DNA of 64,000 nt from Clostridia bacterium (GTDB lineage: Bacteria > Bacillota > Clostridia > Oscillospirales > CAG-272): contig JAFTXE010000109.1 of NCBI GenBank assembly GCA_017461745.1, forward strand, positions 30,822 through 94,821. The letters are read 5' to 3'. Shown here one piece after another: positions 13,171-54,413 of this stretch. A program made the position numbers and the translations under genes. Under the pieces are notes generated by a model, which made no database searches, was not told the origin of the DNA, and saw only the letters and a list, made by a program, of their open reading frames with translations. The stretch's first letter is position 1; every line of letters starts with the position of its first letter.

Positions 13171-14460
13171 ATGATAACTATGCTTGTCATTGCAATACTT
13201 ACGGTTGTGGCTTTTCTGCTCAGTGTACTTTTCTTTCCATCAATTGGGAAGCGTGTTAAAATAAAAATTTATGCATTTATTCCGCTTATAGGCGGATTTT
13301 TTATGGTACTTCTCGGAGATCTTTCATGGAAGGAAGTATTTGTTTCCTTTACCGAAAATTCATCGGTAAATCCAATGAAAATACTCGTTCTGTTTCTGTC
13401 AATGACCGTGTATTCTTTGATACTTGATAAAACTGGATTTTTCGGATATATTTCAGGTGTGGTACTTAAAAGAGCGGGGCATAACCAATTTACCGTGTTT
13501 TTCTCGCTGTATTTCGTAATATCCTTGCTTACTGTGTTTACCTCTAACGATATAGTAATTTTGACTTTCACGCCGTTTATATGTAAATTCTGTAGAGCGG
13601 CAAAGCTTGACGTTATTCCTTATTTAATAATGGAATTTATAGCGGCGAATACGTGGAGCTTATTCTTGCTTATAGGTAATCCCACTAATATATACATATC
13701 AGGAGCATTTGATATAAGCTTTACAGAGTATTTCGTTCATATGGCGCTTCCGACTATTGCCGCAGGACTTGTTTCCTTGGGAGCTATGCTTATAATTTTC
13801 GGCAGAAAACTCAAGAAAAGTATATATGCGGAAACTCAGATACAGGAGATAAACGATAAGCCGCTTATGTGGGTATCTCTCGTACATTTGATATTGTGTA
13901 TAATTTTGCTTGCCATTTCCCAGTATACCAACACGGAAATGTGGTTGATATCGTTGGGCGTCGCTGCTTCGGCAATTATTTGTTCTGTAACAGTGCTTGC
14001 CGTGCGTCGTAAGAAATTCACACCTCTTGTCAATGCAATAAAGGGAATGCCTTTTGAGATAATACCATTCGTTATCGGCATGTTTATAATCGTTATGGCA
14101 CTTGATAATACGGGGATAACCTCAATAATTTCGAGTTTTCTTGGAGAGCATAATAGCGTTTTGGAATACGGATTTGCGTCGCTTTTGTCGTGTAATTTTC
14201 TTAATAATATTCCCATGAGCGTACTGTTCAGTAAGATTTTGTCTGTGTCTCCTTCAATGCCTGAAATTTATGCTACAATAGTTGGCTCGAATATAGGTGC
14301 ATTTATTACTCCCGTTGGAGCGCTTGCGGGAATAATGTGGTCAAATCTTATAAAACAGAACAAAGTCAAGCTTTCCGTGTCGAAATTCGTGGTATATGGA
14401 GTTTCTATAGGCGTTCCATCCTTGCTTGCGTCGCTGATAGTTATCATGATAACGTCGTGA
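13171..14460 (+). CDS. ArsB/NhaD-superfamily (CitMHS-like) ion transporter permease
   Basis: 429 aa with about 10-12 hydrophobic segments. Its length and repeated-hairpin pattern resemble the arsenical-pump/citrate-transporter-like permeases. The substrate cannot be determined from sequence. Confidence 0.55.
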   Translation: MITMLVIAILTVVAFLLSVLFFPSIGKRVKIKIYAFIPLIGGFFMVLLGDLSWKEVFVSFTENSSVNPMKILVLFLSMTVYSLILDKTGFFGYISGVVLKRAGHNQFTVFFSLYFVISLLTVFTSNDIVILTFTPFICKFCRAAKLDVIPYLIMEFIAANTWSLFLLIGNPTNIYISGAFDISFTEYFVHMALPTIAAGLVSLGAMLIIFGRKLKKSIYAETQIQEINDKPLMWVSLVHLILCIILLAISQYTNTEMWLISLGVAASAIICSVTVLAVRRKKFTPLVNAIKGMPFEIIPFVIGMFIIVMALDNTGITSIISSFLGEHNSVLEYGFASLLSCNFLNNIPMSVLFSKILSVSPSMPEIYATIVGSNIGAFITPVGALAGIMWSNLIKQNKVKLSVSKFVVYGVSIGVPSLLASLIVIMITS

Positions 14461-34414: not shown

Positions 34415-35188
34415 TTATATTTGCTTTCTCATATGCTCCAACGCGCCTTTTTCAAGTCTTGACACCTGTGCCTGTGAAATTCCTATTTCCTCAGCTATCT
34501 CCATTTGCGTTTTGTTTTTGTAGTACCGAAGATTTATTATAGTCCTTTCTCGTTCGTTAAGTCCGTTCATAGCTTGCTTCAGCGCAATATTTTCAAGCCA
34601 TATCTCGTCCGAGCTGTTTGTGTCACTTATCTGGTCCATAACGTATATTGAATCTCCACCCTCGTTGTAAACGGGCTCGTAAAGGGAAATCGGCTCAATA
34701 ATTGCTTCCATTGCTCTTACTATTGACTCCTTGCTTTCCCCAAGATGCTTCGCAATATCGTCCACAGTAGGCTCACATTCCTTGGTGCGTATCAACTCTT
34801 CCTTGGCTTGTAGTGCTCGGTAGGCAAGGTCTCGGACGGAGCGACTTATTCTTATTGAATTGTTATCACGTAAATATCTTCTTATCTCTCCGATTATCAT
34901 AGGGACTGCATAAGTGGAAAATTTAACATCGAGGTCTATATTAAAATTGTCTACTGCCTTTACAAGACCTATACAGCCTACTTGAAATAAATCGTCTAAG
35001 TTTTCGCGTCTGCCCGTAAAGCGCTGAACTACACTGAGAACAAGGCGTAGATTTCCGTTTATCAGCTCACGTCTTGCTTGTTCGTCTCCTTGCTTTGTCT
35101 TTTCAAGCAGCTCTCTTTTTTCTTCATCGTTAAGAACCTTTAATTCCGATGTGTTGACACCGCATATTTCAACCTTGTTATAGTACAT
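34415..35188 (-). CDS. sigG: Forespore sporulation sigma factor sigma-G
   Basis: 257 aa. It is near-colinear with B. subtilis SigG as I recall it (NKVEICGVNTSELKVL, NGNLRLVLSVVQRF, DDLFQVGCIGL, KFSTYAVPMIIGEIRRYLRDNN). Confidence 0.85.
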   Translation of the reverse strand: MYYNKVEICGVNTSELKVLNDEEKRELLEKTKQGDEQARRELINGNLRLVLSVVQRFTGRRENLDDLFQVGCIGLVKAVDNFNIDLDVKFSTYAVPMIIGEIRRYLRDNNSIRISRSVRDLAYRALQAKEELIRTKECEPTVDDIAKHLGESKESIVRAMEAIIEPISLYEPVYNEGGDSIYVMDQISDTNSSDEIWLENIALKQAMNGLNERERTIINLRYYKNKTQMEIAEEIGISQAQVSRLEKGALEHMRKQI

Positions 35189-35258: not shown

Positions 35259-35867
35259 TTATTCAAAAGAAGTGCTTCCACTTTTTACCTCAGTAAGACT
35301 ACTGACGGGAGAACGCTCCATTTTGAGAATTTTATCGCAGAGAGCTAATTCTCCGTAATCGTGCGATACTAAAATTGCCGTTCTTCCTTTGATAAATTCC
35401 ATTACAGCATCAACTGTAAACTGCTTAGTTTCTTCGTCCAATCCCTTAAAAGGCTCGTCTAAAAGTAGTAGCGGAGCGTCATAGGAAAGCGCTCTCGCAA
35501 TAGATACGCGTTGCTTCATTCCACCCGATAGCTCATGCGGAAATTTGTTAGCGGCATTTGGTAAAAGCTTGTTCAGATAATATTCTGCCTTTTTTATGTC
35601 ATGACAAACGCATTCAACGTTTTCGAGAGCGGTCATCCAAGGAAATAGCCTTGCGTCCTGAAAAATATATCCGAGCTTTTGAAAGTCGGAGCTTATAGCG
35701 CCGTGACTTGTTGGCACAAGACCTGCAATAGCGCCCAATAGAGTTGTTTTTCCTATTCCCGACGCTCCCGTAAGACCGTAAAAAATCCCTTGCTCAAAGG
35801 TAAAACTTAGATCATCAATAATAACTTGATTTTGAAATTTTACTGAAAGCTTATCAATTTTTATCAT
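35259..35867 (-). CDS. ABC transporter ATP-binding protein (NitT/TauT-type)
   Basis: 202 aa counted from the internal ATG (MIKIDKLSV). Walker A GASGIGKTT, signature LSGGMKQR and Walker B LLLLDEP are present. It overlaps the permease stop by 14 nt. Confidence 0.85.
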   Translation of the reverse strand: MIKIDKLSVKFQNQVIIDDLSFTFEQGIFYGLTGASGIGKTTLLGAIAGLVPTSHGAISSDFQKLGYIFQDARLFPWMTALENVECVCHDIKKAEYYLNKLLPNAANKFPHELSGGMKQRVSIARALSYDAPLLLLDEPFKGLDEETKQFTVDAVMEFIKGRTAILVSHDYGELALCDKILKMERSPVSSLTEVKSGSTSFE

Positions 35868-36645
35868 TATTGACTCCTCTCGGTATAATATGAAGCTTAT
35901 CTCCAACTTTTTCAAGAACAAACACAAACAGCTTTTCGATTATAACGCTCAAAATAATGACTACTGCCGTCCACGCAAACAGAGAAGGTGTCTCAAGATA
36001 AGTTTTTGCAAAATAAAGCTCCGTACCAATTGCGTTATTGGGCGTAGACAGAACCTCTGCTGAAATTCCCGCTTTCCAAGCCATTCCGAGTGAAGATCTG
36101 CAAGCCGCCATAAAAAACGGAGCGACAGAAGGAACATAGAGCTTGGTCAGCTTACTTTTTGCTGAGAATTTGTATATCTTAGCCACCTCGACAAGATTAT
36201 GGTCAACCGAACGAATACCTTCCGAGACGTTTGACCAAACTATTGGAACTACTATCAACGCTGTAATAAATAATGGCAAGGTATCTCTATTAAGCCAGAG
36301 AAGCGCAAGAATTATAAACGACGCCACGGGAGTTGCCTTTATAACGTTAAGCATGGGAGATAAAAGCGAGTTTAGAATTCGTGATTTTTCCGTGATTACA
36401 GCAAGAGCTGCACCAAGCAAAAGTGAGACGAGTATTCCAAGTATAACTCTCACAAGCGAATACAGAGAGGTAAGCCAAAATTCCGAGGTAATCGCAAGTG
36501 TGCCTAACGCCTTTAACACCGATAGCGGCGAGGGGAAGAGAAGCTCGCTATTAACGCGAAAGGAAACTAAAGCCCATATCGCCAACCAAAACGCTATTAT
36601 TCCTAAGACCTTAAATAGAGATAGAAGAAGCCGTTTGATTTTCAT
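35854..36645 (-). CDS. ABC transporter permease (NitT/TauT-type)
   Basis: 263 aa with about 6 TM segments and an EAA-like loop region (NLVEVAKIYKFSAKSKLTKLYVPSVAP). Confidence 0.8.
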   Translation of the reverse strand: MKIKRLLLSLFKVLGIIAFWLAIWALVSFRVNSELLFPSPLSVLKALGTLAITSEFWLTSLYSLVRVILGILVSLLLGAALAVITEKSRILNSLLSPMLNVIKATPVASFIILALLWLNRDTLPLFITALIVVPIVWSNVSEGIRSVDHNLVEVAKIYKFSAKSKLTKLYVPSVAPFFMAACRSSLGMAWKAGISAEVLSTPNNAIGTELYFAKTYLETPSLFAWTAVVIILSVIIEKLFVFVLEKVGDKLHIIPRGVNNDKN

Positions 36646-36673
36646 GCTCAGTTTCCTTTCTTTTGATATTTAT

Positions 36674-37717
36674 TTACTTTGCGACGTAATAGAAATCGTC
36701 AGAGGGGAGTGCGCCTCCGATAGAGGTCTTGTCATAGTTGAATATTTTCTCGCAGAAGGTATTCATAACAGACTTCATATCCTCGCCTGCAATAAAGCAG
36801 ATGTTGCAGTTAGGAAGAGCTTTTTTAGCCATTGCTGCCTTGGGAAGAATTCCTGCGTTTACTATCATGTTGATAGCATCGTCACTGCCCGTCTTGATAA
36901 ATTCAACGGATGCCTTGTAGTCCTCAAGGAACTTTGCAATCTCTGCGGGATGTTCCTTTGCGAATGCGGTATTAACAACGAGACAGCCCTGAACGAGTGT
37001 ATTCTCTCCGTTGAGCTTTTCCCATTCCTCAGTCATGTTGATAGCAACCTTTACGTTTTCGTTTGAAAGTGTAGTTGCGGTAACCTTAGGCTCGGGTAAT
37101 ACTGCAAGAGAAATCTGATTTGCTGCGATTGCGGTCTGAAGCGCATCGGGGCTTGGATAAGTCTTAGCGTCTATAGTTACGTCCTCACCGACCTTAAGTC
37201 CTGCGCCCTCAAGAAGAGCTGCTGTGATATACTCGGGGTTAGCGCCCGCACCTGGAACGTAAACAGTCTTACCCTCGAGGTCATCGAGAGAGGTAATATT
37301 TTCACCGTTCTGGAGAAGATAAAGAACTCCAAGAGTGTTGAGTGCAAGAAGCTGGAGCTTACCCTCGGATTTGTTGAAAAGCTTAACCGCAACGTTAGTG
37401 GGAAGAGCCGCAATAGCGCACTCACCGCTGATGATAGCACCCGTGATAGCGTCTGCGGAGGTATGAAGAGAAATATTATAATTCATTTCCGCTTTATCAT
37501 TTTTTACATTGTCGATCATCTGTGCCATACCGAGAGCGGTAGTACCGTTGAGAGCGTATATTTTCATTTCAAGCTCGGAATCGGGCTTTGCGTCTGTCTG
37601 TTCTGCATCTGTATCGGTGTCGGTTACGGTTTCCTTGCTGTCGGAGCAAGCCACAAAAGAGAAGAGCATAAGAAGCGCTATCATAAGCGCCAAAATTTTA
37701 GTTAGTGTTTTTTTCAT
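36674..37717 (-). CDS. ABC transporter substrate-binding lipoprotein (NMT1/THI5-like fold)
   Basis: 347 aa with a lipoprotein signal ending LFSFVAC. It lies in an operon with the permease and ATPase. The substrate is not determinable. Confidence 0.7.
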   Translation of the reverse strand: MKKTLTKILALMIALLMLFSFVACSDSKETVTDTDTDAEQTDAKPDSELEMKIYALNGTTALGMAQMIDNVKNDKAEMNYNISLHTSADAITGAIISGECAIAALPTNVAVKLFNKSEGKLQLLALNTLGVLYLLQNGENITSLDDLEGKTVYVPGAGANPEYITAALLEGAGLKVGEDVTIDAKTYPSPDALQTAIAANQISLAVLPEPKVTATTLSNENVKVAINMTEEWEKLNGENTLVQGCLVVNTAFAKEHPAEIAKFLEDYKASVEFIKTGSDDAINMIVNAGILPKAAMAKKALPNCNICFIAGEDMKSVMNTFCEKIFNYDKTSIGGALPSDDFYYVAK

Positions 37718-47904: not shown

Positions 47905-49566
47905 ATGAAAAAAAGTATAAGGATTCTTATATCGGCGTTGATAACGCTCGTGGTCGCGGCAATTGGATATTACGTATATCTTCCCGCACTCAATATTTAC
48001 AGTCAGGAATTTTGGATAGTATTGGCGGTTGTTGCGCTTATTTTCAGCGTGGCTTATTTGCTTCTTGGTGCAAAGGAAAGCGGCAATGTGAAAAAGGCTT
48101 TTTCAGGCTTTAAATCACTTAAAATAGTTATCATTGCCGTTGCAGTTCCGATAGTAGTTTTAATAGTCGGTAATATCATTTCTTCGACGTTTTTGAATGC
48201 CGAAAAGTATGCAAATATTATTGAGGTTGAAGAGGCAGTTTTTGAGGAAGATATGCCTGAGACGGGACTTGTTACCAATATAGCGCTTATGGACAGTGAT
48301 TCTGCCGCGAGAATAGGTGATAGGACGCTTGGCGCTCTTTCTGAGGTTGTTTCACAATATCAGGTTGGAAATAACTATTATCAGATAAACTATAAAGGCA
48401 CGCCGCAGAAGGTAACTAACCTTGAATATGTTGACTTTTTCAAATGGTTTAATAACAAAGACAGCGGAGTTCCGGGACTTGTTATGGTTGACCCCGTAAA
48501 CAGCTCTGCTGAGTATATTGAGCTTGAAACGCCTATGAAGTATGTTGATAGCGCATATTTTGAGGAAGATTTGCACAGAAAACTGAGATTTACCTATCCG
48601 ACTAAGATATTTGGCAATTATTCATTTGAACTCGACGAGGAAGGAAACCCCTATTATATAGTTTCCTGCATGGCTCCTCGAATTGGTCTTTTTGGCGCAA
48701 TGGACGTTGTGGAGGTAGTCGTTTTTGACCCTTGCGACGGTAGTCATGAGCTGTATGCTTTAGAAGACGCTCCATCGTGGATAGATAACGTATTCACGGG
48801 TACTTTGGCTTCGCAGAAGTATGATTGGTACGGCACGCTCAAAAATGGATTTTGGAACAGCATCATAGGAAATAAGGACTGTAAGGTCACGACCGATGAT
48901 TTCGGATATATTGTTATTGGCGACGACGTATGGTTTTTCACAGGAGTTACTTCTGTAAGCAGTGATGAAAGTAACATTGGATTTATTATAAGCAACGCAA
49001 GAACGGGCGAATATAAATTCTATCCCGTAATCGGAGCTGAGGAATATTCAGCTATGAGTGCGGCGGAAGGTGAAGTACAGGAAAAGGGATACGTTGCATC
49101 CTTCCCATCGCTTATTAATGCTGCGGGTGAAGCGACATATATCATGGTTCTTAAGGATAATGCGGGTCTTGTGAAGCTTTATGCTCTCGTTAACGTTGAA
49201 AACTACAGTATAGTTGCTACGGGTACGACGCAAGCTGAAGCAAAGCAAAAGTATATAGAGCTCCTCGAAAACGAGGGAATTATTGAGAAGGAAGATTTGC
49301 CTGAAACCCCCACCGTTCCCGATAACACCGAGAACGCTACGATTACGGTAGATAATATAAGAATGGCTACGGTCGACGGTGAAACTGTTATGTATATCAA
49401 CGGAAACGACGGAAATCTTTACAAGCAAGCGCTTTCCGAGGATGAGACTCTTATGCTTTTGAAGGTTGGTGACAAGATTAATATAGAGTACGCCGATACT
49501 GACGGTAACGATAAAATAAAGAAGCTTGTATCTTGGACTGAGTTTGTCGAAGAATCTGCAACGTAA
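47905..49566 (+). CDS. Hypothetical membrane protein with a large extracytoplasmic domain
   Basis: 553 aa with an AAGGAGG RBS. Three N-terminal TM helices are followed by a ~450-aa soluble region with no motif I can name. Confidence 0.55.
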
Positions 49567-51776: not shown

Positions 51777-51986
51777 CAGAAACCTCTCAAAGAAAAAAAT
51801 ACTACTCTTATATTTTAATACATTTTCCGATTTTTTTCAAGTGGTAAATACAAATATTTTTATTATTTAAAATTATTTAAAAAATTCTCCCTAAAATATG
51901 GCTTTTGCTAATGTCAAAAAAAGGATTTCCGCATAAGATGTTAGGGAAGAGCTATTGCTCAAACTATTATTTCAGGAGGAAACGAT

Positions 51987-52820
51987 ATGTCTGAAAACAG
52001 ATTTCCGTGTTCATCGCAGGACAGAGGAAAAAACGAGACTGTCTGCATAGATACAAATCGTGTGTTGGATTCCTGTCGTGACAGAGACTGCTTCGAGGAT
52101 GTGAAGGTTTTGCTTACCAACTTTGGTAACGATATCTTGGAACACACGACGAATATCAGAGCAAAAAGCGCGCATATTGCGTGGACGCAGATTTGTATTG
52201 ACCCCATTAAGTTTAACCGCGGATTTTATTCTGTAAATATCAAATTTTACGTCAAGCTTTGCTTTGAAGCATGCCTTTGCGGTGGCAGAACTCAGGAATT
52301 TGAAGGTATAGCCGTACTTGAAAAGAGAGTTATACTTTACGGAAGCGAAAGCAACGTAAGCATTTTTAAGAGTAGCGGAGACTGCTCCGATTTCTGTTCG
52401 ACTCCCGAGCCTTGCCATAGCAGTAAAAATGTTCCGATGGCTGTTGTAGAAGTTGTTGAGCCAATTATACTTAACGCCAAGGTAAGAGAAGCAGAAGACC
52501 CTTGCTGTTGCTGCTGTTGCTGCTGCGGAGATATTCCAGAGGGAATAGTATGTGGTTTCGGTGACAATCTCAGTGATAGTAACGGAAGATATCTTACGGT
52601 ATCTCTCGGTATATTCTCAGTTGTAAGAATAGTCAGACCTGCGCAGTATATTATTAACGCAACGGAATACTGTGTTCCCGATAAGATATGTATTTCCGCA
52701 GAGGACGATAATCCTTGCGCAGTATTTCGCTCCATGGCATTCCCGACATCAGAGTTTTGTCCCCCCGACTTTACCCCACCTCATAACGATAAGCACGGAA
52801 AGTGCGGTTGCGGTAACTGA
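51987..52820 (+). CDS. Cysteine-rich hypothetical protein with an octa-cysteine run
   Basis: 277 aa with an AGGAGG RBS. By my count 26 residues are Cys, including CCCCCCCC (aa 173-180, nt 52503-52526). The N-terminus carries VCIDTNRVLDSCRDRDC and the C-terminus KCGCGN. A strong terminator follows. Confidence 0.7.
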   Translation: MSENRFPCSSQDRGKNETVCIDTNRVLDSCRDRDCFEDVKVLLTNFGNDILEHTTNIRAKSAHIAWTQICIDPIKFNRGFYSVNIKFYVKLCFEACLCGGRTQEFEGIAVLEKRVILYGSESNVSIFKSSGDCSDFCSTPEPCHSSKNVPMAVVEVVEPIILNAKVREAEDPCCCCCCCCGDIPEGIVCGFGDNLSDSNGRYLTVSLGIFSVVRIVRPAQYIINATEYCVPDKICISAEDDNPCAVFRSMAFPTSEFCPPDFTPPHNDKHGKCGCGN

Positions 52821-52836
52821 AAAACAAATAAATTCT

Positions 52837-52880
52837 TGCGGTAAGGAGTTTTCCTTACCGCATTTTATATTTTTTTATTT
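52837..52880 (+). terminator. Intrinsic terminator of the Cys-rich gene
   Basis: The stem tgcggtaagga / tccttaccgca has a gttt loop. A long T-rich tract (ttttatatttttttattttt) follows. Confidence 0.8.
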
Positions 52881-52886
52881 TTAGTA

Positions 52887-52922
52887 TTGACATTGACGTA
52901 GCGTCAAGTGGTATGATATAAT
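52887..52922 (+). promoter_or_regulatory. MerR-type promoter with a long spacer and an embedded dyad operator
   Basis: TTGACA (52887-52892), 19-nt spacer containing the perfect dyad TTGACG-TAG-CGTCAA (52893-52907), then extended -10 TGgTATGAT (52909-52917). An alternative reading is TTGACG-18-TATAAT (52917-52922). Confidence 0.6.
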
Positions 52923-52938: not shown

Positions 52939-53634
52939 ATGGATAAAAATCTTCTTTACGATATTTCTGATGTTTGTAGGATGCTTGATACCACTTCCAG
53001 AACTTTACGGTTTTACGAGAAAAAAGGAATAATTAAAAGCACAATTATACCATTTTCAACAAGGCGCAAATATACCAAAGAGCAAATAGATAACATAAAA
53101 AATGTGCTTGTATTGAGAAAATTGGGATTATCGGTAAAAGCAATATCGGAGCTTCAACAAAAAAATACAGATTTGCGAAATGCACTGCTTTTAAAAAGAG
53201 CGGAGATATGGTCGTTAATTGATACTAAGGAAGGTGAAGTTAACCTTATTAATCAGGCAATTGCATTTATAGATGAGAATGAAAATATTTTCGCACAGGA
53301 TTTTAACACTGTTTTTAGAGGTAATGATATAACAAGAGAGGCGATAATAAGAGAGTGTAATCATTCTATTATTACCGGTGATAGTGAAGTATTATATAAA
53401 TTTTTAAGCGAAAAAATGAAAGCATTTATGCCGCCAAACGTCTTTGAAAGCGTCAGAAAAGATACTTTATTGCCTCTTGGAAAATTTATATCTGTTGAAA
53501 ATTTAGAATATGATAAAAAACACGCAAACATTATTTATCAATATATAAAGTATGAAAAGCTTGGACTTAAAGTTAAATATATTTTTTATGGCGATATCAT
53601 TCATGGATTGTGGTTCGAATATTATAAATTATAA
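52939..53634 (+). CDS. MerR-family transcriptional regulator with a ~130-aa C-terminal effector-type domain
   Basis: 231 aa with the N-terminal MerR wHTH YDISDVCRMLDTTSRTLRFYEKKGIIKS...RKYTKEQIDNIKNVLVLRKLGLSVKAISEL. A coiled-coil linker follows, then a C-terminal domain of uncertain family. The coding sequence is AT-rich. Confidence 0.8.
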   Translation: MDKNLLYDISDVCRMLDTTSRTLRFYEKKGIIKSTIIPFSTRRKYTKEQIDNIKNVLVLRKLGLSVKAISELQQKNTDLRNALLLKRAEIWSLIDTKEGEVNLINQAIAFIDENENIFAQDFNTVFRGNDITREAIIRECNHSIITGDSEVLYKFLSEKMKAFMPPNVFESVRKDTLLPLGKFISVENLEYDKKHANIIYQYIKYEKLGLKVKYIFYGDIIHGLWFEYYKL

Positions 53635-53649
53635 GGAGTAATAAACATT

Positions 53650-53964
53650 ATGAAAAAAATATACTTTTCTTTATTGCTACTAATTTCTCTATTTTCGCTT
53701 ACATCTTGTAAAATTAATTGGTTTGGCGCAAGTTACACTGTTCATTGGTTAGTTATTTTTATTCCCGTTTTAGTAATATTGTTGGTTTCTCATATATGGA
53801 TTATTACACGTAAATATAAATGTCCAAAGTGTAATAATTTTTTCAAGCCTCGTTGGTATGAAATTTCAGCATGGCTTCATTACGGAAATAAACGTCTTGT
53901 AAAATGTAAAAAATGCGGATATAAGGGCTTTTGTCCAACAAGAAATAAAGGGGAAAACATATGA
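53650..53964 (+). CDS. Small membrane/lipoprotein with a C-terminal zinc ribbon
   Basis: 104 aa. A lipobox-like signal is present (LLLLISLFSLTSC). A TM helix follows (WLVIFIPVLVILLVSHIWII). The protein ends with CPKC-x22-CKKC. Confidence 0.55.
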   Translation: MKKIYFSLLLLISLFSLTSCKINWFGASYTVHWLVIFIPVLVILLVSHIWIITRKYKCPKCNNFFKPRWYEISAWLHYGNKRLVKCKKCGYKGFCPTRNKGENI

Positions 53965-54413
53965 AGTGGGCTATATATTACATAACGATGATAATATTGA
54001 ATATACTTGCGACAGTAATATTTTTTGAATACATCAATATTACAGCTATATCAATAGTACCAATTTTTATTTTAATACTTATGTTGTTTCAAGCTTTTTT
54101 GTTTTACAATAGTAAAGAAAATGAATTTAACACTACATATTCTGTGCGTTCGGAATTAAACCAAACGGAAGAAAATACTTTGTTCTATTACAATGCTAAT
54201 TCGATGTTAATTTGTGTACCTTTGTTATTGCCGTTTATATTATTTTTCTCAAGTGGGATTAAATTTATTTGTCTTATAATATACTTACTTGGGTATTCAG
54301 GGGCATTAGTTTTTCGCATAAAAAATAAAGACAAGCTAAATAACAGAATACATTCCGAAGAGAACGAATTAAAAATACAACAATCAAAAGAAGAACTTGG
54401 CAAATGGAAATAA
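53961..54413 (+). CDS. Small polytopic membrane protein (about 4 TM)
   Basis: 150 aa. The start overlaps the upstream stop (ATGA), indicating translational coupling. It has four hydrophobic segments and a charged C-terminal tail. Confidence 0.5.
   Translation: MKWAIYYITMIILNILATVIFFEYINITAISIVPIFILILMLFQAFLFYNSKENEFNTTYSVRSELNQTEENTLFYYNANSMLICVPLLLPFILFFSSGIKFICLIIYLLGYSGALVFRIKNKDKLNNRIHSEENELKIQQSKEELGKWK

Follow-up and report, generated by a model that had tools for sequence, protein, structure and literature searches.

CsxA is the protein of the exosporium's basal layer in Clostridium sporogenes and in C. botulinum of group I. It is essential for the exosporium and self-assembles into a hexagonal lattice, which is dissolved only under harsh reducing conditions (PMC7333573; preprint 10.64898/2026.09.03.749163). 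The C. sporogenes sequence (299 residues, 25 Cys; UniProt G9F2G0) is printed in the supplement of PMC4942563. In preprint 10.64898/2026.09.03.749163, the model of CsxA is a trimer shaped like a tripod, in agreement with the cryo-electron microscopy lattice, with unpaired Cys concentrated at the tripod legs as candidate inter-trimer cross-links, and is placed by Foldseek in the SPOCS/DUF3794 superfamily together with SipL, CotE and SpoVID. Here we describe a gene from a Clostridia bacterium, located in a 64-kb stretch of contig JAFTXE010000109.1 (the whole stretch is called the window below), which encodes a Cys-rich protein of 277 residues containing eight consecutive Cys. We consider it likely that this protein is a divergent member of the CsxA superfamily, that is, a late mother-cell, self-assembling, disulfide-cross-linked protein of the spore coat or exosporium.

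As spores, many gut commensals that are strict anaerobes withstand oxygen and move between hosts, and almost nothing is known about the composition of the outer layers of gut-commensal spores. Some known spore proteins can be compared with the window protein. CotY, CotZ and ExsY, of the Bacillus crust and exosporium basal layer, resemble it by analogy, being Cys-rich proteins made in the mother cell that form disulfide-locked, self-assembling two-dimensional lattices (PMC7333573). They are not homologous to it: a different fold is described for them (PMC7333573; preprint 10.64898/2026.09.03.749163), and neither the window protein nor 38 of its relatives matches the Pfam CotZ family. CdeC and CdeM of C. 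difficile, compared here by description, are likewise Cys-rich exosporium proteins with morphogenetic or structural roles, and the fold of CdeC is related according to preprint 10.64898/2026.09.03.749163, but they have no Pfam family in common with the window protein. The SPOCS/DUF3794 proteins (SipL, CotE and SpoVID, with CsxC and CdeC added by the same preprint) would share their fold with the window protein by way of its homology to CsxA, although there is no sequence match to the SPOCS model PF12673 or to CsxC.

Sequence relationship to CsxA

The gene occupies positions 51987–52820 of the forward strand (ATG start, stop codon included). Cys accounts for 26 of the 277 residues (9.4%), and eight of these are consecutive, at residues 173–180 (nucleotides 52503–52526, CCCCCCCC). 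The N-terminal end contains paired Cys (VCIDTNRVLDSCRDRDC) and the C-terminal end is KCGCGN. No signal peptide or transmembrane segment can be read from the sequence, and the N-terminus is hydrophilic. The number of Cys, the run of eight, the motifs at the two ends and the absence of a signal peptide or transmembrane segment had been listed in a preliminary description of the locus, made by a model from the DNA letters, and they were found again on recounting.

Pfam, NCBIfam and PHROGs gave no meaningful family, either for the window protein (Pfam E ≤ 1) or for up to 38 relatives (Pfam E ≤ 0.1). The copies of Pfam and NCBIfam that were scanned are without a CsxA model, and CsxA itself gave 0 Pfam matches. 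Sequence searches of the PDB with two family profiles returned only noise (E ≥ 0.38). Using hhalign, the family profile matches the CsxA sequence (97.8%, E 6.6e-13) over 219 columns, residues 14–259 against 23–258, and matches a profile of the CsxA family over 210 columns (99.0%, E 5.7e-18). BLASTP of the window protein against CsxA matches the C-terminal block (E 2e-4). The preliminary description could assign no family and proposed a profile search of the HHpred type. Its statement holds for the standard libraries of hidden Markov models (HMMs), which gave no match, but not for profile–profile comparison, where the match to the CsxA family is significant.

The relationship can be followed in both directions. 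We gathered 87 homologues of CsxA. They come from Clostridium sensu stricto, Haloimpatiens and Hathewaya, and every one is annotated as PF27077 'CsxA'. With local E-values conservatively scaled to 1.8e9 sequences and a cut-off of E < 1e-3, an HMM of the window family recovers 85 of these 87 proteins (median 50 bits), and the CsxA HMM recovers 167 of 368 window-family proteins, with a top score of 76 bits. An intermediate subfamily of about 2400 clusters, which includes Pseudoclostridium thermosuccinogenes, bridges the window family and the CsxA family; PF27077 is carried by 1 of its top 120 members. CsxC, an equally Cys-rich envelope protein of C. sporogenes, shows no similarity, and thus a Cys-rich composition alone does not create the CsxA signal.

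A joint alignment of three subfamilies including CsxA (alignment A5) has six invariant positions, namely C35, G208, Q220, C244, F247 and P253, while conservation is 90% or more at E17, V19, C20, D28, C30, C229, C235, P243, F257 and P259. Six Cys are conserved across the superfamily: C20, C30, C35, C229, C235 and C244. The other Cys drift between homologues, both in number (6–31) and in position. The first three of the conserved Cys lie in an N-terminal signature, E-x-V-C-I-x3-[RK]-[VI]-x-D-[SQ]-C-x2-[RK]-[DE]-C (52035–52091, residues 17–35), which is (nearly) invariant in the joint alignment. The last three lie in a C-terminal signature, [VI]-[TS]-L-G-x-F...Q...Y-C-x-P-x2-x-C...[DN]-P-C-x2-F...P...F-x-P (52599–52763, residues 205–259), the block best conserved against CsxA. 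The motifs common to the window protein and CsxA are CI...[KR][VI]xD[SQ]CxxKxC and TLGxF...VQLLxPAYxYCxPxxEC...DPCxxF...P..F.P. By these profile comparisons and alignments, the window protein is a remote homologue of CsxA over nearly its full length.

The two proteins are alike in size and Cys content (277 residues with 26 Cys, against 299 with 25), in having no signal peptide, in the signatures at the two ends with their six Cys, in predicted strand order, in the position of a Cys-rich loop, and in a CATA-type promoter of putative mother-cell class, discussed below. They differ in several respects. Their identity is about 18–20%, and the window protein is not annotated by PF27077. The window family has an extra conserved central segment of about 25 residues (GSEG..FSS...PxAVVEVVxP). 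The loop is almost pure poly-Cys in the window protein, whereas the longest Cys run in the CsxA family is 1–2. CsxA has an acidic C-terminal tail, which is absent from the window protein. The csxA locus contains collagen-like and glycosyltransferase genes, and the window gene has none. Finally, the window protein is found in gut Clostridia of the Oscillospiraceae/Eubacteriales type and not in Clostridium sensu stricto.

Size and distribution of the family

The relatives of the window protein form 2219 clusters at 90% identity and 893 at 50% identity. The closest 120 of the 2219 are 70–99% identical to it, about 277–284 residues long, and unnamed or called 'hypothetical'; cluster look-ups added no informative protein names. 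When each species was represented by a single genome, family members turned up in at least 547 genomes. The best 80 of these are nearly all metagenome-assembled genomes (MAGs) from gut or rumen, labelled Clostridia, Eubacteriales, Oscillospiraceae or Lachnospiraceae. With the exception of one doubtful MAG, considered below, the taxon labels of the homologues are Clostridia, Bacillota or 'Firmicutes', and they include the cultured spore-former Pseudoclostridium thermosuccinogenes. The preliminary description had suggested looking at the phyletic distribution, and the outcome agrees with its spore-related reading. No paralogue was found in the window or in the orthologous loci.

In a diverse alignment of the family (A2), the conserved core comprises an N-terminal block, E-A-V-C-I-x3-R-I-Y-D-S-C-x-D-K-D-C, the motifs FNRGFY, GSEG and PxAVVEVVxP, and a C-terminal block, VTLGxFSIVRxER-VQ-L-PAYDYC-P-KEC...DPC--F...FP--EFFPP. 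A C-terminal GCGCG recurs within the family. One family member in JGI/IMG (P0274) is named 'uncharacterized protein YfcZ (UPF0381/DUF406 family)'; Pfam scans do not back this name, and it looks mis-annotated.

A very large and unannotated family of gut and rumen Clostridia is thus linked to CsxA, which is among the few clostridial spore-shell proteins of known architecture, and the family offers a definite candidate for the principal cross-linked protein on the spore surface of these bacteria. On the alignments, CsxA-type spore proteins would extend to a large group of gut Clostridia that is missed by current models and has an unusual poly-Cys loop. The current Pfam model for CsxA covers a mere corner of the superfamily.

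Predicted structure

The AlphaFold2 model of the window protein, calculated from the diverse alignment, is mostly β-strand, with a predicted local distance difference test (pLDDT) score of 78 and a predicted template modelling (pTM) score of 0.73. Long strands are at residues 18–44, 57–73, 80–97, 101–118, 151–168 and 201–224, with a disordered loop at 131–145 and a short helix near 243–257. An independent AlphaFold2 model of C. botulinum CsxA is less confident (pLDDT 69, pTM 0.58). When compared by the order of secondary structure, the two models have identical element order, with the Cys-rich loop equivalently placed.

Foldseek comparison of the window model with the PDB and the viral fold library BFVD gave nothing at E < 1e-3; the top matches, to SecB, to phage neck proteins and to astrovirus spike, reach TM-scores of 0.1–0.2. 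The CsxA model likewise matches nothing in the PDB at E < 1e-3. Since genuine CsxA also has no match, the negative result for the window model is uninformative as to fold, and on these models the PDB would hold no solved representative of the fold of the window protein and CsxA. The weak PDB matches of the two models overlap: both lists contain SecB (1ozb), phage neck proteins (8fvh_M, 9b42_G, 9mkb_AB), C. perfringens enterotoxin (8u5f_H) and AChBP (4b5d_A). This is consistent with a shared predicted fold of long, curved β-sheets that has no solved representative. The SPOCS model PF12673 has no match in the window protein or in 38+9 relatives, even at E up to 10; it gives a weak match to CsxC (19.9 bits).

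The poly-cysteine loop

The eight consecutive Cys are in a variable, Cys-rich loop at 52491–52535 (residues 169–183), which sits between two confidently predicted strands. In the AlphaFold2 model the pLDDT of this block is 67, and that of its flanks 93–94. The diverse alignment shows the same arrangement, a variable and Cys-enriched linker between conserved strands, and hhalign aligns the tract with the DCGGGCNCGCTC loop of CsxA. Throughout the superfamily, the loop (columns ~200–250 of alignment A5) is a hot spot of low complexity. In the subfamily of P0154 it is immediately followed by a run of Asp (DDDDDDDD), and the CsxA sequence at this place is CDNDCCGCTCEDNGD.

Among 200,000 shuffles of the protein that preserve its composition, none reached eight consecutive Cys, and the maximum, seven, was reached once. 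The clustering is therefore not a by-product of the high Cys content. Long Cys runs are usual in the subclade of the window protein: in the 120 homologues that are at least 70% identical, the longest Cys run ranges from 2 to 9, with modes at 5 and 8 (25 proteins have 8 and four have 9), and the tract typically covers 7–10 positions, usually with no more than 1–2 interruptions. The longest run is 1–4 in the 50%-identity representatives and 1–2 in the CsxA family.

The codons of the run are TGC TGT TGC TGC TGT TGC TGC TGC. Between species the TGC and TGT codons are scrambled while the Cys residues are retained, and the length of the tract varies by whole codons. Synonymous scrambling together with persistence of the Cys implies selection on the protein and not a young trinucleotide expansion. 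It bears out the earlier view that simple slippage did not produce the run. As possible origins of the run, slippage and an assembly artefact were both rejected, since 120 homologues retain the tract while its codons are scrambled synonymously.

As judged from the alignments, the poly-Cys tract is an elaboration of the Cys-rich loop of CsxA, specific to the subclade with 70% identity or more. By analogy with the tripod-leg Cys of CsxA, it is plausible that the loop is a site of inter-trimer cross-linking. A more elaborate possibility, which we regard as unlikely, is that the poly-Cys loops of several subunits meet at a symmetry axis on the spore shells of gut commensal Clostridia and form a multi-disulfide or metal–thiolate cluster there, which would act as a redox- or metal-gated lock, possibly as a germination trigger. 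Such cooperative chemistry at lattice nodes has not been described for CsxA, ExsY or CotY. The poly-Cys loop, kept by selection, is a natural variant of an unusual kind, and could inform how disulfide-locked protein lattices form.

Transcription and translation signals

Upstream of the gene there is a −35-like element, GTCAAA (51913–51918), and a −10 element, GCATAAGAT (51931–51939; consensus GCATAnnAT), all on the forward strand. The −10 element matches the one common to sigma-E and sigma-K, and the motif as a whole is conserved upstream of orthologues, where the consensus is tTGTCAAAa-N11-12-GCATAnnATnnTAnnGA. In 60 of 80 orthologous upstream regions the pattern GTCA-N14-16-CATA is present, against 0.86 expected from shuffles, and it is always 46–67 nucleotides before the ATG. 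In the alignment of these 60 promoters, where the search pattern itself dictates CATA, 100% have T at position 8 and 93% have the G that precedes CATA. The window promoter (51913–51939) is the sole match to the extended pattern within the 64 kb. No sigma-70-like promoter was found on the forward strand upstream of the Cys-rich gene.

Sigma-E and sigma-K share a CATA...T −10 element, and sigma-K has an 'AC' element at −35 (Saujet et al. 2013). The conserved C is 16 nucleotides upstream of CATA, which is the spacing of the sigma-K 'AC' element. In what follows, labels of the form L0xx denote loci carrying orthologues, and L081 is the C. botulinum csxA locus, used as a control. The csxA gene of L081 has ACAC-N15-GCATACTATA at the same place, and its −10 element, GCATACTAT, is of the same type as that of the window gene. 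In L082, which has an 80%-identical orthologue, a cotJABC operon lies 4.5 kb away and has GACA-N16-GCATAAGAT before cotJA; cotJ-like operons are sigma-K-dependent in C. difficile (Saujet et al. 2013). Thus the conserved promoter motif fits, on its sequence, the mother-cell sporulation class, either sigma-K or possibly sigma-E.

The predicted 5' end of the mRNA is close to a hairpin, GAGC-tatt-GCTC (51949–51960), and a hairpin is found at the same position in orthologous loci. In a test that uses no alignment, 54 of 58 loci have a hairpin of at least 4 bp directly after the −10 element, where shuffles give 12.4 ± 2.9. The leader hairpin has a mean minimum free energy z-score of −15, and its stem occurs in 34 different sequences. 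The structure is conserved, and the sequence is not. The significance is confined to this local hairpin, since z-scores for folding of the whole 5' untranslated region (UTR) are unimpressive (mean −1.0). MAFFT followed by RNAalifold predicted no structure in the 5' UTRs, because stems of variable length are mis-registered in the alignment. The 5'-terminal stem is best read as a putative stabiliser of the mRNA.

The cotJA leader of L082 (13255–13355, with cotJA at 13355) has the same design as that of the Cys-rich gene: GACA-N16-GCATAAGAT, the hairpin AGAGCTTACGCGTAAGCTCT, and a ribosome-binding site. This suggests that a promoter followed by a 5'-hairpin leader is a common design of late mother-cell genes in these Clostridia. 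Together with the gene, the promoter and hairpin form a testable set of markers for such genes in uncultured Clostridia.

The ribosome-binding site, AGGAGG (51974–51979), is 7 nucleotides before the ATG, and a GGAGG or GGAGA site is conserved in the orthologous loci. Downstream of the gene is an intrinsic terminator (52837–52880, forward strand), consisting of an 11-bp stem (6 GC) at 52837–52862 and a T-run. Both signals are as given in the preliminary description. The terminator, and the separate promoter of the next gene, mark the Cys-rich gene as monocistronic on sequence grounds. A strong ribosome-binding site, hairpin and terminator are, by prediction, the layout of an abundantly expressed late mother-cell gene.

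Proposed function and alternatives

We hypothesise the following function for the window protein. Late in sporulation, mother-cell RNA polymerase with sigma-K (or possibly sigma-E) would transcribe the gene from GTCAAA-N13-GCATAAGAT. The mRNA would have a small protective hairpin at its 5' end, a strong ribosome-binding site and a strong terminator, and so would give a large amount of protein. The protein, mostly β-strand and without an export signal, would oligomerise, presumably as a trimer by homology with the CsxA model, and assemble itself around the forespore as an ordered layer, which disulfides within and between subunits would then lock. The six conserved Cys (C20, C30, C35, C229, C235 and C244) probably stabilise the fold or the oligomer, and the approximately 20 variable Cys, including the exposed poly-Cys loop, probably form a dense thiol patch for cross-links in the lattice. 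The layer built in this way could equally be a coat layer or an inner layer of the envelope. The preliminary description had likewise proposed a cross-linked component of the spore coat or exosporium, which it likened in concept to Cys-rich exosporium proteins of clostridia. This gains support, stronger than it had put forward, from the homology to one such protein, CsxA, the conserved promoter of mother-cell type and the SigG gene of the host.

Several observations weigh against this proposal. The subclade of the window protein is the one farthest from CsxA, with 22–25.5 bits against the CsxA HMM and 18% identity, and the central third differs from CsxA by the segment of about 25 residues noted above. 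In precomputed Pfam annotation, PF27077 is present on none of the 120 closest relatives (0/120), nor on the L082 orthologue; the model fails to annotate this subclade because it is the most distant one (22–25 bits). Most loci read TC at −35, and not the canonical AC of sigma-K. One member is in a MAG labelled Bulleidia sp. (L028, CAVIBA010000060.1), from the Erysipelotrichales and a genus not known to sporulate. This label is likely to be mis-binning or mislabelling, because its upstream region hardly differs from the one in L041, from a Eubacteriales MAG. Lastly, at the other 83 loci no collagen-like (BclA-type, at least 8 GXY repeats) or glycosyltransferase neighbours occur within ±5 kb, and the 64-kb window has none either. 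The one further GXY match, in L012, is a glycine-rich tract and not collagen-like, while both types of gene are present at the csxA control locus. A role in a nap-bearing exosporium is therefore not indicated.

The protein might instead be a morphogenetic organiser of the spore envelope, like the Cys-poor SPOCS proteins SipL, CotE or SpoVID, which would recruit coat proteins and not make up the bulk of a lattice. The gene is single-copy and very strongly conserved (70–99% identity in many species), has no BclA-type neighbours, and has a promoter of a class that is also compatible with a sigma-E-dependent morphogenetic gene; moreover, CsxA is grouped with morphogenetic proteins in SPOCS/DUF3794. 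However, the same work reports that the morphogenetic SPOCS proteins have no disulfide-positioned Cys and that the structural members are Cys-rich (preprint 10.64898/2026.09.03.749163), and the window protein has 9.4% Cys and a poly-Cys loop under selection. In addition, the strong ribosome-binding site, 5' hairpin and terminator suggest bulk production, and there is no sequence match to SipL or SPOCS PF12673. We therefore regard an organiser as unlikely. We give a lower probability still to a protein mainly concerned with metal binding or redox chemistry (metallothionein-like, an Fe–S or Zn scaffold, or a thiol buffer), in which the Cys tract and CGCG would be metal ligands. This would account for the very high density of Cys, for the CxC, CGCG and poly-Cys motifs, and for the recurrence of GCGCG at the C-terminus in the family. 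But conservation across the superfamily is limited to six Cys, and the remainder vary (6–31) in number and position, which is not expected of the ligands of a defined metal cluster. The characterised homologue is a structural lattice protein, no Fe–S, metallothionein or other metal-binding family was matched in Pfam or NCBIfam, and the conserved part is predicted to be a large β-fold and not a small metal-binding module. The metal, Fe–S or S-acylated scaffold that the preliminary description offered as its alternative has thus gained no support, although metal binding could coexist with a structural role.

There is least to be said for a function unrelated to spores, such as a vegetative surface protein, one derived from phage or a defence protein, with the likeness to CsxA an artefact of composition. 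Alignment scores can be inflated when sequences are rich in Cys, the CsxA HMM gives the window subclade just 25.5 bits, and the neighbouring genes are housekeeping genes. Yet the aligned signatures are mostly of residues other than Cys (TLGxF, VQLLxPAY, DPCxxF, FP..F.PP, KVFDxC) and keep the same order along about 210 collinear columns, and intermediate subfamilies bridge the families with scores of up to 76 bits. The absence of a match to Cys-rich CsxC also speaks against an artefact, as do the sporulation-type promoter, which is not of sigma-70 type, and the lack of any match in PHROGs, BFVD or the PDB. We regard this explanation as largely refuted and very improbable.

Genomic surroundings

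The neighbours of the Cys-rich gene are deoC, DUF1846, a MerR-family regulator, topoisomerase III, pgi and a D-Ala-D-Ala carboxypeptidase, all of housekeeping type. The host has sporulation genes. SigG is encoded in the window at 34415–35188 on the reverse strand (NF006071, 422.7 bits against a cutoff of 372), and the cotJABC operon adjoins the 80%-identical orthologue in L082. Of the context genes named in the preliminary description, sigG could be verified, but yaaT and a BofC-like gene were not found among the annotated open reading frames (ORFs) in the part of the window that was scanned. SigG is flanked by an ABC transporter (35259–37717) and not by spoIIGA-sigE.

The next gene after the terminator is the MerR-family gene (52939–53634, forward strand), followed by two small ORFs of membrane or zinc-ribbon type (53650–54413). 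It is preceded by a near-perfect sigma-70 promoter (52893–52922, forward strand), with TTGACG, an 18-nucleotide spacer containing TG, and TATAAT (11/12 matches). Between topoisomerase III and deoC/DUF1846 there is a gene (47905–49566, forward strand) for a 553-residue protein with N-terminal hydrophobic segments and no NCBIfam match. A syntenic orthologue of 551 residues is present in L082 and L083 and has no precomputed Pfam annotation. The membrane protein is conserved and uncharacterised.

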